DNA of 32,000 nucleotides from Erysipelothrix larvae (GTDB lineage: Bacteria; Bacillota_I; Bacilli_A; Erysipelotrichales; Erysipelotrichaceae), in contig NZ_CP013213.1 in assembly GCF_001545095.1 (NCBI RefSeq), positions 60,001 to 92,000 of the forward strand, given 5' to 3'. Made by a program: the position numbers and the translations under genes. Of this stretch, positions 1-4,473 are shown piece after piece. How positions within the stretch are numbered: the stretch's first letter is position 1; each line of letters begins with the position of its first letter. A model generated the notes under the pieces. The model had not been told where the DNA came from. It did no database searches and saw only the letters and a list, made by a program, of their open reading frames with translations.

Positions 1-275
1 ATTGTATAGCCAGACACTTGATTGAACTGTGTTATATAATTGGGTGTAAAGACTTTATGTGTTATATCAAGTACATGAGTCCCAGCATCAATTGACGCAG
101 AGATAAAGAATTCTTTTGGAAACATGTCAGAAATATGATGATTCAGTGAATCGTTGAGAATTAAGATAAAAAAGATAAGCACAGATGTGATGGCATAGAA
201 AAAGATTGTTGAAGACAGCTGACGCACATTCGAGATAATGATGAACTTAAGGAGCTTTATCTTTGTGAGTATCAT
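1..275 (-). CDS. ABC transporter permease, FtsX/MacB-like, N-terminal fragment (continues beyond window edge)
   Basis: Not in the ORF track (no stop inside window). My translation of the minus strand from the ATG at 275-273 gives MILTKIKLLKFIIISNVRQLSSTIFFYAITSVLIFFILILNDSLNHHISDMFPKEFFISASIDAG... This is a basic N-terminus, one long TM helix, then a polar extracytoplasmic stretch, as in FtsX-type permeases. It overlaps the stop of the upstream MacB-type ATPase gene (247-249). Confidence 0.5.
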   Translation of the reverse strand, partial: MILTKIKLLKFIIISNVRQLSSTIFFYAITSVLIFFILILNDSLNHHISDMFPKEFFISASIDAGTHVLDITHKVFTPNYITQFNQVSGYT

Positions 276-918
276 GGAGTTTACCTGAGTGGATATATAA
301 AATACGCGTACAGTAAGGCTGTGTTTCGAGATCGTGAGTCGCTATGATACAGGGTATTTTAAGTGATTTTATGAGAGATAAGATTTCTGATTTTGTCGAT
401 TGATCCAAAGCACCAGTAGGCTCATCTGCGATGATAAACTGTGGAGACTTCAATAAAGTTCGCGCAATCGCAACACGTTGTTGTTGACCGCCACTTAATT
501 GATGCGGGTATTTATCCAACATATTTTGAGAGAGTGACACACGAAAAAAGGCACGATTAATTGATCGTTTGATGTGTTTTTTTGGAATCTTGCTTAAAAT
601 GCAGACCCATTCAAGATTTTCCTTAACCGTCTTATCAGAAATGAGTTTAAAATCTTGGAATATAAATCCAATTTTCTCTCGTCGAATTGTTGTAATCATC
701 GCATGATTTTCAACATCAATTTTTGAACCATCAAAATGAAGTTCACCTTCATAATCGAAATCGAATAAGCCAAGAATGCGAAGTAAGGTGCTTTTTCCAG
801 AACCACTTGCACCATAAAGCCCAATTAAATCGTCTGCACTAATCTCTAAATCAAGACCATCAAGTGTCGGTAACGGTTCAGTTGGATATTGCTTTGTGAT
901 ATTTCTAAGTTTAATCAT
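247..918 (-). CDS. ABC transporter ATP-binding protein, MacB/LolD/FtsE-like (putative bacteriocin export/self-protection)
   Basis: Walker A GASGSGKST, signature LSGGQQQRVAIAR, Walker B FIIADEPTGALD. I prefer the ATG at 918 (MIKLRNITKQY) because GAGGT lies 5 nt upstream. The track start at 930 sits inside that SD. ATGATTAA overlap with the stop of the upstream 568-aa gene. Confidence 0.9.
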   Translation of the reverse strand: MIKLRNITKQYPTEPLPTLDGLDLEISADDLIGLYGASGSGKSTLLRILGLFDFDYEGELHFDGSKIDVENHAMITTIRREKIGFIFQDFKLISDKTVKENLEWVCILSKIPKKHIKRSINRAFFRVSLSQNMLDKYPHQLSGGQQQRVAIARTLLKSPQFIIADEPTGALDQSTKSEILSLIKSLKIPCIIATHDLETQPYCTRILYIHSGKLHDTHKDKAP

Positions 919-2614
919 TGGATACCTCATATAAGATTAAGCCATCACTTAATCGGGTTGTTATATCATAGGTTTGAGTTTCTTCATTGTAGGTCCCTTT
1001 CACCGCTACTTTCCCTTCTATAGTTTCAACATAAATGGCATCCTCTTCAAGTAATACAAAGGAATTAGGAATTGAAATAATGGGTTGTGGAACCGTCAGT
1101 ATGACAGATTGTGGGATGAGTTTACTTTCTTTGATGTCGAAGATAAGAAGATATTGATTAATGTCTTGATAGGACCCTGAGTTATGCTCATATTGATAAT
1201 CAATACTTTTAAGTTTAATACTCCCCAAAGGATTGCCGTTCATTGATTCAATTTCATAGGATTCCTTTAATCTGAAATTGTGCATATCCGTCTCTGGTAT
1301 GATTACTTTGCATTCATAGGCGTGACTTATAAACAAAAAAACTGTCTCACGTATTTCAACACGTCCATCCATTGATGCTTTAACATCCCTTCCATAGGCA
1401 TCGCGATATAAAACAGTACCACGACTTACATTTTGAGATTCCTTAATTCTTAATGTGATTTCATCAAGGTTACTCGACTTAATGACAACAGGTTCCAATT
1501 TTCCAAAATAGGATGATTGAGTAATTGAAATTACAAACTCAGCGGGACCACTTGTTTTTGAACAACTACTCAACAACATAAGGCTGATTATAAGTAAAGG
1601 TCTCAACCTAAACGTTAAATCGAGTGCACGACACCACCTGATAAGTAAAACAATCAATACGATTGCAGATACGAAAAGATACATCAGTGAGAGTGAGCTT
1701 TGAGTTTGGTGGATGCCTTTCATCAAACCATACATTAGAATATACGTTGAGACTAGATAATTAATACCAAGTTCTGCCCCTTTTCGGATGAGTGTAAAAG
1801 CGTAATAGCTGTGTTTGAATTGAAATGAGTAATAAAACAACATGTCAAACTCAAAAACTATCAATATCAAGCAGAGGATAAGAACAATGATATGATCAAG
1901 GGGAGTGCGATACACTAAAAATGATATCAATGACAACACACCCAGAAGTAGTAAGTGATGTTTGAGGGTTTTTAGTATTTCATGAGGTAAAAAGTTCATT
2001 GAATGATTTGTCATCTTGAGTCTAACTAGGTGAAAGCGAGTTTTAAGCCTACCAATCATCTCTTTGGAATTTGTGAGTTCTTGAGAGAGATTGGAAGTAA
2101 AGAAGAACACGAAAAGCATTAAAATTCGATTGATTGGGAATAATTGCAGTATCATAAATTGCGATAAGTATGGCAGGAGTGCATACAGGCTCGTAATTAT
2201 TGTTAATACCAAAAGCATTTGTGAATGATCTTTTATAAGACTTGCTGTTTGATATCGAAGGATGCGTAATGGAATCATACCAAGTGAAAGAATCAGGAGT
2301 AAGACCCAGCTGTCTAAAAATAGCAGTGTACCTATGGAAATAATGAATTCAAAAGGGTTAATTATATTGAGTGATAGGCACAGGATGAGTCCATGTGTAA
2401 AAATTATGGGTATTAACAGGTTCTCATCGAGTAGAAATATAAATAACAAATACGACACAATTATCGGCCAATGGCGTTTAAGTGCTAGTTTAATGACTCG
2501 TGTTACAAATAACCACATATTTCGTGTGCAAATCGGTGCAAGCAGAGTGATATGAGTGGGCTTAATGTATAACGATGATAAGATTCCAAAAAAAAGAGCA
2601 TATTCAATTTTCAT
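911..2614 (-). CDS. Large polytopic membrane protein with C-terminal membrane-fusion-protein (HlyD/MacA-like) beta-rich domain; putative circular-bacteriocin biosynthesis/export component
   Basis: The N-terminal ~340 aa is a string of hydrophobic helices. The C-terminal ~230 aa is soluble. It has MFP-like patterns: RGTVLYRDAYGRDVKASMDGRV (lipoyl-like), YECKVIIPETDMHNFRLKESYEIES (beta-barrel 'v.v.E.d....G..v.i'), and ISIPNSFVLLEEDAIYVETIEGKVAVKGT...LSDGLILY. The track start at 2617 is GTG; the ATG at 2614 overlaps the TGA of the upstream gene (TGATG). Confidence 0.6.
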   Translation of the reverse strand: MKIEYALFFGILSSLYIKPTHITLLAPICTRNMWLFVTRVIKLALKRHWPIIVSYLLFIFLLDENLLIPIIFTHGLILCLSLNIINPFEFIISIGTLLFLDSWVLLLILSLGMIPLRILRYQTASLIKDHSQMLLVLTIITSLYALLPYLSQFMILQLFPINRILMLFVFFFTSNLSQELTNSKEMIGRLKTRFHLVRLKMTNHSMNFLPHEILKTLKHHLLLLGVLSLISFLVYRTPLDHIIVLILCLILIVFEFDMLFYYSFQFKHSYYAFTLIRKGAELGINYLVSTYILMYGLMKGIHQTQSSLSLMYLFVSAIVLIVLLIRWCRALDLTFRLRPLLIISLMLLSSCSKTSGPAEFVISITQSSYFGKLEPVVIKSSNLDEITLRIKESQNVSRGTVLYRDAYGRDVKASMDGRVEIRETVFLFISHAYECKVIIPETDMHNFRLKESYEIESMNGNPLGSIKLKSIDYQYEHNSGSYQDINQYLLIFDIKESKLIPQSVILTVPQPIISIPNSFVLLEEDAIYVETIEGKVAVKGTYNEETQTYDITTRLSDGLILYEVSND

Positions 2615-3497: not shown

Positions 3498-4096
3498 CGA
3501 TAATGCTCCTTGTTTTTAGAGTGTAATTGATTCATAAATCCGTTATTATGATCGATCATAACAATTGTTTTTTGAGTAGATATCAAATGATTAATGCGTG
3601 TTTCAATTGCATGAATAGACTCAGTGTCCAAATTTTGAGTCAGTTCATCAAGAAAGAAAATACTGAGATTATCAAGAAATAATGGAAGGATGTTTAGTTT
3701 CTGTTTCATACCTGAAGACAAATCCCCAAATCTTTTCTGGCGTATCTCATGATAGTCAAGATTTAAAGAATCCATCACATGTATGAGCGTATCCATTGAT
3801 GTAGCGTACAAGGACTTCATAAGCCGTATACACGTATAAACACGTTCAGTATCGAAGAAGAAGGGTTGTGCTGGAATGTAACAGAGTTCTCTTTTATTGA
3901 AAGTAGATATTTGTGTTCCACGTGTGCATGTGTGGAGTTTAAGAAGTATCGAGATCAGGCAAGATTTACCTGATCCGTTCTCCCCAGAGATGCACGTTAA
4001 CGTTTGGTTTTGAATCGTAAGGGAAACATCTTTTAAGATAAGTGTTTCATTCAACTCCAGCGTTGCATCAATAAGTTCGAAATGGGGAACTACCAT
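3467..4096 (-). CDS. ABC-type ATP-binding protein (small, circular-bacteriocin-cluster type)
   Basis: Walker A GENGSGKSCL, signature LSSGMKQKL, Walker B IFFLDELTQNLD, H-loop MIDHN. The ATG at 4096 is embedded in the last codons of the precursor gene (TC ATG GTA G overlapping ..TCA TGG TAG). Confidence 0.85.
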   Translation of the reverse strand: MVVPHFELIDATLELNETLILKDVSLTIQNQTLTCISGENGSGKSCLISILLKLHTCTRGTQISTFNKRELCYIPAQPFFFDTERVYTCIRLMKSLYATSMDTLIHVMDSLNLDYHEIRQKRFGDLSSGMKQKLNILPLFLDNLSIFFLDELTQNLDTESIHAIETRINHLISTQKTIVMIDHNNGFMNQLHSKNKEHYRCENKTVIKL

Positions 4097-4347
4097 GAGA
4101 TTGCAGCAGTTTTCCCAAAGCGTTTAATCAAGGTCTTTCCTGATGCCATAACAATAGCCATGAGTGAAGCACCGGTTAAACACAAAGCAAGTAAAGTCCA
4201 TAACCCTGCTCCAGCAGCAATTGCATCTACAAGTTTACGTGCGGTGTATACATTGACACCAAGCATCCCTGTAATCTTAGAAGACCAAAAACATGAAGAC
4301 AAACACAGTGCAGCAAAATTAGCACAAACTCTGAGTGATTTACGCAT
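4090..4347 (-). CDS. Circular bacteriocin precursor (85 aa; predicted ~24-aa leader + ~61-aa cationic hydrophobic core)
   Basis: MRKSLRVCANFAALCLSSCFWSSK/ITGMLGVNVYTARKLVDAIAAGAGLWTLLALCLTGASLMAIVMASGKTLIKRFGKTAAISW. Start moved from the track's 4374 to 4347 because AAAGGAG lies 8 nt upstream of that ATG. The core resembles enterocin NKR-5-3B/amylocyclicin (GIS.YAAKKVIDII...; ...LIKKYGxKYAAAW), uberolysin (AKKVVDAIDKGAAAF) and the AS-48 C-terminus (..AVIAW), all recalled from memory. It is followed by the characteristic accessory genes. Confidence 0.7.
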   Translation of the reverse strand: MRKSLRVCANFAALCLSSCFWSSKITGMLGVNVYTARKLVDAIAAGAGLWTLLALCLTGASLMAIVMASGKTLIKRFGKTAAISW

Positions 4348-4473
4348 AAATAATTCTCCTTTCGATAACCACATTCTTAAATAAGCAAAAAGTTTTCGGA
4401 TTCCTTGGTTTGATGGTTTTACTATGAGAATAATTTAAGCTACAATAATGGTGAGAGATTAAGAGGAGGCACT

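Follow-up and report, generated by a model that had tools for sequence, protein, structure and literature searches.

Seven overlapping minus-strand genes on the Erysipelothrix larvae chromosome (AOC36_00280 to AOC36_00310) probably form a cluster for a subgroup-I circular bacteriocin related to amylocyclicin and enterocin NKR-5-3B. They occupy the left edge of a 32,000-nucleotide stretch of contig NZ_CP013213.1 (positions 60,001 to 92,000; here the window, with positions counted from its first letter). A preliminary description of this stretch had read them as a circular-bacteriocin locus, and the precursor, ATPase, DUF95-like protein, large membrane protein and MacB/FtsX transporter that it named all hold up. 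Judged by sequence, the locus belongs to a known kind of cluster, its peptide being kin to amylocyclicin and NKR-5-3B and its pump to those of AS-48, cerecyclin and YknWXYZ. The suggestion of a new system was overstated, as the locus is a divergent relative of known clusters and its precursor is already named 'uberolysin/carnocyclin family circular bacteriocin' in RefSeq, with a similar automatic name in UniProt. Five differences set it apart from known clusters: the gene order A-D-W-C-B::F-G-H, a DUF95-like protein that escapes the Pfam model, a B-position protein fused to a membrane-fusion protein (MFP), an MFP that lacks the hairpin, and the absence of an immunity gene.

Precursor and predicted peptide

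The 85-aa precursor is 100% identical to AOC36_00310 of E. larvae and scores 24.6 bits with Pfam PF09221 (class IId cyclical, uberolysin-like; cutoff 23.6, E 3e-5), a family also recorded for the orthologous precursors. Its best match among PDB sequences is enterocin NKR-5-3B (2mp8; phmmer E 5.4e-6), with residues 26-85 aligned to residues 2-64 of the 64-residue mature peptide, and the proposal that this product belongs to a circular-bacteriocin family is thereby borne out over its full length. The leader/core boundary was placed at K24|I25 from this alignment, and the cut is further supported by the orthologous precursors, which begin aligning exactly there. In a multiple alignment with the amylocyclicin-type peptides of published tables, the core aligns end to end with a single 3-residue gap. 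A profile of the four orthologous cores matched the amylocyclicin/NKR-5-3B group with a probability of 98.4% in hhalign (E 5e-15, 60/61 positions) and the AS-48 group with 80.6%. None of 16 reference cores is more than 38% identical to that of E. larvae.

The leader, MRKSLRVCANFAALCLSSCFWSSK, is cationic and hydrophobic. The predicted core, ITGMLGVNVYTARKLVDAIAAGAGLWTLLALCLTGASLMAIVMASGKTLIKRFGKTAAISW, begins ITGMLGVNVY and ends KTAAISW. Circular bacteriocins of subgroup I have 58-70 residues, are cationic, carry a polybasic stretch and no cysteine pair, and have a hydrophobic first and an aromatic or hydrophobic last residue (PMC7132975). The core agrees in size (61 aa), charge (isoelectric point 10.2, net charge +5, 6 K/R vs 1 D/E), polybasic stretch (KTLIKRFGK), cysteine content (a single Cys) and terminal residues (I at position 1, W at position 61). 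Head-to-tail ring closure between I25 and W85 is predicted by analogy, and a saposin-like fold of four or five helices is predicted from the gap-poor alignment to the solved structure 2mp8. The computed average mass of the core is 6281.57 Da for the linear form and 6263.55 Da for the cyclic form, and the predicted tryptic peptide across the W85-I25 junction is TAAISWITGMLGVNVYTAR (computed monoisotopic mass 2023.056 Da).

The leader itself resembles a lipoprotein signal: it starts with charged residues, continues with a hydrophobic stretch and contains L-S-S-C, a tetrapeptide that recurs in the internal lipobox of the 567-aa protein described below. The leader of the orthologous locus L016 is hydrophobic but has no Cys.

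Layout of the cluster

The open reading frames (ORFs) were all found where the preliminary description had placed them, seven co-directional minus-strand genes running from position 4347 to the window edge. All six junctions overlap (by 7, 31, 13, 1, 20 (or 8) and 29 nt), and there are no intergenic gaps. The features are as follows.

4356..4363, minus strand: ribosome-binding site GAAAGGAG (AAGGAG, spacing 8 nt to the precursor ATG at 4347), read from the sequence.
4090-4347, minus strand: precursor, 85 aa (ORF and ribosome-binding site).
4276..4347, minus strand: precursor leader, residues 1-24, MRKSLRVCANFAALCLSSCFWSSK, with the cut predicted after K24.
4090..4275, minus strand: core peptide, residues 25-85, 61 aa, plus stop codon (PF09221, phmmer, hhalign).
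3467-4096, minus strand: first ABC ATPase (D-type), 209 aa, without a membrane domain of its own (Pfam ABC_tran, motifs).
3027-3497, minus strand: 156-aa membrane protein with about 4-5 helices (Yip1 match below cutoff; position kept in orthologous loci).
2614-3039, minus strand: 141-aa membrane protein, probably divergent DUF95/SpoIIM-like (profile-profile comparison).
911-2614, minus strand: large protein, 567 aa from ATG (568 aa from a GTG one codon upstream).
1565..2614, minus strand: large protein residues 1-350, polytopic domain ending in an internal lipoprotein-type signal (hydropathy, helices).
911..1564, minus strand: large protein residues 351-567 plus stop codon, MFP domain from Cys351 (hhalign, Foldseek).
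247-918 (or 247-930), minus strand: MacB/FtsE-type ABC ATPase, 223 aa from ATG 918 (227 aa from ATG 930) (ABC_tran, NCBIfam).
1-275, minus strand: FtsX-type permease, first 91 codons, cut by the window edge (full protein of 347 aa in L001:12340-13383).

The 85-aa reading of the precursor is preferred because AAGGAG lies upstream of ATG 4347 and no such site is present at ATG 4374; a 94-aa reading from ATG 4374 was rejected for want of a ribosome-binding site. For the second ATPase, ATG 918 is more likely the start than ATG 930, as it is favoured by a GAGG ribosome-binding site and by the 223-aa GenBank/RefSeq call.

The left flank was recovered from a 128-kb assembly contig (L001) that is identical to the window over positions 1-4700. 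There the permease is complete at 347 aa and is followed after 1 nt by a convergent cation-efflux gene, which indicates that the cluster ends at this point and is complete with seven genes. The locus described as apparently complete is so once this flank is added, the permease being cut within the window itself. The G+C content of the cluster equals that of its surroundings, and neither the cluster nor the DNA adjoining it holds an integrase, transposase or regulator gene, in keeping with the core-genome setting described before. Rfam, tRNA and repeat scans returned nothing relevant to the bacteriocin locus.

Membrane and transport proteins

The 209-aa ATPase matches Pfam ABC_tran (E 1.4e-17), carries Walker A (GENGSGKS), signature (LSSGM), Walker B (IFFLDE) and H-loop motifs, and matches the ATPases of amylocyclicin-type clusters in phmmer at about 4e-9. 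The second ATPase matches ABC_tran at E 3.4e-30, the NCBIfam model L_ocin_972_ABC with 183 bits and the NCBIfam MacB, LolD and FtsE models at 1e-46 to 1e-50, and its phmmer match to the accessory ATPase adjoining the S. vineae circular-bacteriocin genes is 1e-42. The catalytic motifs of both ATPases are intact. The 347-aa permease passes Pfam FtsX (26.1 bits, cutoff 25.5) and is built of a single N-terminal helix, a ~170-aa loop and three helices at the C-terminus; MacB_PCD was not detected in the loop. The MacB/FtsX type proposed for the accessory ATPase and permease is therefore upheld, and with the MFP domain these two proteins are encoded together as a pump set. The 156-aa protein does not significantly match any E-type membrane protein from the amylocyclicin loci and is a candidate accessory or immunity protein of the YknW/As-48E type; its gene keeps its position in all orthologous loci.

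The 141-aa protein is probably a remote DUF95/SpoIIM-like member. An alignment of this protein and its four orthologs (A5) was compared with an alignment of DUF95-position proteins from amylocyclicin-type loci (A2), for which eight such loci were taken from genomes as references. In hhalign the two matched with a probability of 85% (E 6e-6, score 40.3, 95 columns). Controls with reversed alignments scored 9.9-12.6, unrelated membrane-protein alignments 12-18, and 60 column shuffles a mean of 11.5 (SD=2.0) with a maximum of 17.8. Three of the five invariant A2 columns are polar (Asn, His and Glu, the latter two within an H-x3-E motif) and coincide with the invariant N54, H100 and E104 of the 141-aa family. 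As a single sequence the 141-aa protein gave 0.4% against DUF95 proteins in hhalign, which is not significant, and the match became significant once the orthologs were added. SpoIIM is the sole Pfam family to appear for any ortholog at E <= 10 (E 1.8, one ortholog). Among the DUF95-position proteins of three reference loci, that of B. siamensis passes PF01944 strongly (6e-22), one falls just under the cutoff and that of S. vineae has no match, so the direct test by hidden Markov model (HMM) is a weak one.

The large protein is, on sequence and profile comparison, a fusion of a polytopic domain and an MFP domain that would partner the MacB-type ATPase and the FtsX permease. The preliminary description had called the whole protein polytopic, which is right for residues 1-350 (hydropathy, structure model); the last 217 residues are the MFP domain. 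With its size, its topology and its place beside the DUF95 gene, the polytopic domain fits the large 'B' protein of circular-bacteriocin clusters. When 1.84 billion representative proteins were scanned in full by HMMER, the 567-aa protein had four relatives only (P0004 to P0007), all from orthologous loci. A word-indexed homology search found no match, not even the query's own entry, a metagenome scan found no match, and direct Pfam and NCBIfam scans found no family.

At the junction, the E. larvae protein has RLR, a hydrophobic stretch and L-S-S before Cys351. Across all four full-length orthologs, positively charged residues are followed by a hydrophobic segment and then by a lipobox (LSSC, LVGC, LSGC or MLAC), whose Cys is invariant. 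By the positive-inside rule, Cys351 and everything after it would lie outside the cell. A separate internal start for the MFP part was rejected as a general explanation, a Met being nearby in only one of the four orthologs.

The C-terminal 217 residues are beta-rich, and their family matches the separate 355-aa MFP of the S. vineae circular-bacteriocin locus in hhalign (94%, E 1.5e-7, 142 columns). Within the MFP domain the AlphaFold2 model has a predicted local distance difference test score (pLDDT) of 60-79, and only this beta-rich C-terminal part of the model is usable. Foldseek matches of the domain in the PDB with E <= 1e-3 were MFPs only, namely BesA (4kkt, 4kku) and MexA (6iok_J), with BesA 4kkt the best (E 1.4e-5). 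A PDB-sequence search with the MFP-domain profile found no match, and Biotin_lipoyl_2 matched weakly in two of four members. Two orthologs have a coiled-coil insert of ~60 residues at the expected MFP hairpin site, between the '...VSHG..VKKDE...' strand and the 'A.[FY][DN]GTV' strand; E. larvae and P0004 are without it.

Orthologous loci

Orthologous contigs represent four related metagenomic lineages (L012/13/14, L015, L016 and L011), and the gene order of the cluster is the same on them. The first three share their flanks, a divergent HAD hydrolase gene upstream and FUR, Impact_N and DegV genes downstream, which argues for one locus inherited within Erysipelothrix-like species rather than a recent insertion. 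The short L011 contig covers 5.4 kb from within the first ATPase gene onwards and includes no flanks. All seven genes are intact in L012/13 and L015, as are the five on L011. Between lineages the cluster proteins are 18-42% identical, and that their reading frames are all intact at such identities points to long-term purifying selection; seven intact overlapping ORFs in an order kept across these lineages are far beyond chance. Word-indexed searches with the 141-aa and 85-aa proteins returned E. larvae entries only.

The four orthologous cores are each exactly 61 aa, with a net charge of +4 to +6, a first residue of I or V and a last residue of W, W, Y or F. The leaders are 7 aa in L012 and L015 (MTELIPS and MSQLLPN) and ~24 hydrophobic residues in E. 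larvae and L016.

Judged by flanking genes, the closest relative is L016 (L016:6040-8870). Its precursor, first ATPase, 156-aa and DUF95-like proteins are retained, and its large polytopic protein ends at 287 aa, with the cation-efflux gene directly after it; the MFP domain, second ATPase and permease are absent. This gene content fits a core module with a dispensable accessory module.

The flanking housekeeping proteins are 41-71% identical between lineages (L001, L012, L015 and L016), against the lower range of the cluster proteins, so the bacteriocin locus evolves faster than its neighbourhood at a constant site.

Comparison with known systems

The closest likeness is to the NKR-5-3B (enkB, enkB1-B4) and amylocyclicin (acn) systems, with which the locus shares a cationic core that aligns end to end (LGxxxYxAxKxxDxI ... 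KxLIKxxGKxAAxxW) and has a hydrophobic first and an aromatic last residue, together with genes for a precursor, a soluble ATPase, a probable DUF95-type protein and a large polytopic protein; a long hydrophobic leader is shared with amylocyclicin. In contrast to these systems, the E. larvae core is 3 residues shorter (61 aa vs 64), PF01944 does not pick up the DUF95-like protein, an MFP is joined to the B-position protein, and a small immunity gene is lacking. The genes run A-D-W-C-B, whereas three reference amylocyclicin-type loci have A-B-C-D-E and the acn locus A-B-D-C. The remark in the preliminary description that order and fusions differ from known loci was thus correct, and the fusion it concerns is that of the B-position protein to the MFP.

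The accessory parts of AS-48 comprise an HlyD/MFP-like as-48F, an ATPase as-48G and an ABC-II/FtsX permease as-48H (PMC7132975), and the cerecyclin cluster has a YIP1-family protein and an accessory ABC transporter (PMC8534725). With the accessory operons as-48EFGH and cclEGHI, both production and immunity are known to increase (PMC6131525). Like AS-48 (as-48EFGH), carnocyclin (cclEGHI) and cerecyclin (cycEFG and YIP1), the E. larvae cluster has a second ABC transporter downstream of the core genes. Unlike them, its MFP is the C-terminal domain of the large polytopic protein instead of a separate gene product, and its weakly Yip1-like gene lies between the first ATPase and DUF95 genes and not beside the pump genes; the core profile, moreover, matches the AS-48 group only at the level given above.

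YknWXYZ of Bacillus consists of a Yip1 protein, an MFP, an ATPase and a permease and protects against the SDP peptide toxin (PMC4887032). The E. larvae cluster resembles it in its putative Yip1-like protein, membrane-anchored MFP, separate ATPase and FtsX/MacB-type permease with a large extracellular loop. The anchoring differs, since YknX has its own uncleaved N-terminal signal and the E. larvae MFP would be held by a ~350-residue polytopic domain and a lipobox; the E. larvae permease loop also lacks a detectable MacB_PCD, and the Yip1 similarity is sub-threshold.

BesA of Borrelia burgdorferi is a lipoprotein MFP without a coiled-coil hairpin. It is the best structural match, and the hairpin is missing from the E. 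larvae and P0004 domains too, but the sequence identity is 12%, the model is of low confidence and two E. larvae orthologs carry the hairpin. BesA is also part of an RND-type pump, not of an ABC pump of a Gram-positive bacterium.

Interpretation

The overlapping genes are translationally coupled and have stayed together at a single chromosomal site in related lineages. If the locus is a chromosomal subgroup-I cluster, as is probable, the 24-residue leader would be removed between K24 and I25, and I25 joined to W85 to give a 61-residue cationic ring of four or five helices, which would permeabilise the membranes of Gram-positive competitors. Within the membrane, the polytopic domain would act with the 209-aa ATPase and the DUF95-like protein in maturation and primary export. 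A four-part pump of the YknWXYZ/As-48EFGH type, made up of the MFP domain, MacB-type ATPase, FtsX permease and weakly Yip1-like 156-aa protein, would clear the producer's membrane of the peptide and take over the self-protection that a dedicated small immunity protein would otherwise provide. That the polytopic and MFP parts are covalently joined suggests that maturation machinery and accessory pump may act as one complex.

Several results weigh against this interpretation. The precursor scores 23.3 with TIGR03651, below the cutoff of 30.7. Neither a consensus sigma-70 promoter nor a terminator was found adjoining the cluster, and, with all genes overlapping, the coding strand has no free ORF of 40-70 aa for a small immunity gene; an immunity gene is tabulated as missing in several other amylocyclicin-type clusters, so its absence here does not exclude membership. 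The 141-aa protein was assigned to no family by direct Pfam and NCBIfam scans (no SpoIIM at E <= 1), and its structure model, folded as a lone sequence, has a low-confidence pLDDT of 60.6. The preliminary description had named a lack of similarity of both the 85-aa product to circular bacteriocins and the 141-aa product to DUF95 as grounds for rejection; formally the direct HMM scans give the second half of this, and the profile-profile comparison supports the DUF95 relationship. The 156-aa protein matches Pfam Yip1 below the cutoff (23.6 bits, cutoff 28.6, E 5.5e-5), and does so in the E. larvae member only, with no match in any of its four orthologs. The polytopic domain scores 16-18 against known B proteins in hhalign, at the level of shuffles (mean 11.4, maximum 16.6); between reference loci, too, most B proteins show no detectable likeness (best pair 13.7% probability). 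The AlphaFold2 model of the 567-aa protein, built with five sequences, has a low-confidence pLDDT of 52. The loss of the MFP and pump in L016 indicates that this part may be dispensable or that the locus may be prone to decay.

This last point, with the missing immunity gene, regulator and consensus promoter, would also fit a silent or decaying remnant that makes no active peptide or is kept mainly for self-protection. Clusters without some of their parts are treated as possibly vestigial in the genome-mining literature (PMC7132975); the MFP domain, ATPase G and permease H are gone from the closest relative, L016, and gene callers and the RefSeq re-annotation shorten several genes. We nevertheless consider a remnant unlikely, given the seven intact and overlapping E. 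larvae frames, the purifying selection indicated by intact genes in L012/13, L015 and the partial L011, the intact catalytic motifs of both ATPases, the strong ribosome-binding site of the precursor and the other amylocyclicin-type clusters that lack immunity genes. Less probable still is a linear, leader-cleaved, class-II-like membrane-active peptide for which the membrane proteins serve export or immunity without ligation. The remote DUF95 relationship and the unrecognisable B-type protein would allow it, as would the fact that the ring-closing enzyme is unknown for the whole circular-bacteriocin family (PMC6131525). Against it, the core aligns end to end with proven circular peptides, including the terminal residues used for ligation, all four lineages have a core of exactly 61 aa against leaders of 7 to 24 aa, and the locus has the three components that define the class, a precursor, a (probable) DUF95 protein and an ATPase.

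The combination of a weakly Yip1-like protein and an MFP with a MacB-type ATPase and an FtsX permease would be expected of a YknWXYZ-like resistance pump against foreign toxins, with the small ORF incidental or a signalling peptide, and YknWXYZ itself guards against a peptide toxin (PMC4887032). Such a pump is very improbable here: the small ORF is a bona fide member of a circular-bacteriocin family and is found in every locus that covers its position, and L016 keeps the precursor, D-type ATPase, 156-aa, DUF95-like and polytopic proteins and has lost the pump, which makes the pump the dispensable part.

Within the preferred reading of a circular-bacteriocin cluster, we tentatively raise the further possibility, itself more doubtful than not, that the 567-aa protein is a Rosetta-stone polyprotein in which a B-type protein and the accessory-pump adaptor are made as one chain through an internal lipoprotein signal. 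If so, Lgt/Lsp acting on the chain would lipidate and cut it into a ~41 kDa membrane protein and a ~25 kDa lipoprotein MFP, an unusual internal use of the lipoprotein pathway, and peptide maturation and the immunity/export pump would be built as a single stoichiometric machine.

Annotation and neighbouring features

Apart from the precursor, the membrane proteins of the cluster are 'hypothetical' in RefSeq and two are shortened. There the 141-aa protein has only 114 aa (WP_198401185.1), and the 567-aa protein is represented by a 310-aa fragment from M258 (WP_198401184.1). The original GenBank record has both at full length, and the long readings are favoured because the full-length forms are conserved in other lineages. 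The gene call of the Logan assembly places a 100-aa antisense ORF (window 4082-4384, plus strand) over the precursor (4090-4347, minus strand) and calls just the last 117 aa of the first ATPase, and the same antisense call occurs in L016; a bacteriocin gene covered by such a call is easily missed.

Outside the cluster, a 21-nt unit with the palindrome GTGTC-nn-GACAC occurs twice in direct orientation within window positions 6601-6657 (at 6601-6621 and at 6637-6657). The two copies lie between a gene for an HTH_11 + 3H regulator (6711-7259, minus strand) and one for a 185-aa membrane protein (6060-6617, minus strand), and look like a putative tandem operator of that regulator.

Significance

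In the literature searched, no paper on this locus was found, no circular bacteriocin was reported from Erysipelothrix or Erysipelotrichia, and Erysipelothrix appeared only as an indicator strain for other bacteriocins. The locus is also absent from the supplements of two large genome-mining surveys, which may be explained by the PF01944 or DUF95 match that published mining pipelines demand (PMC8534725; PMC13289728). Since the 141-aa DUF95-like protein has no PF01944 match, similar clusters are likely to have been overlooked, and if the polyprotein and the PF01944-invisible DUF95 protein are as proposed, current mining rules would miss a whole lineage of such clusters. In taxonomic reach, the product would be a circular bacteriocin from Erysipelothrix. 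The fused 567-aa protein offers a single taggable protein for testing joint action of its two parts, and the conserved fusion of the B-position protein to the MFP is genetic evidence for joint action of the B-position protein and the accessory-pump adaptor.

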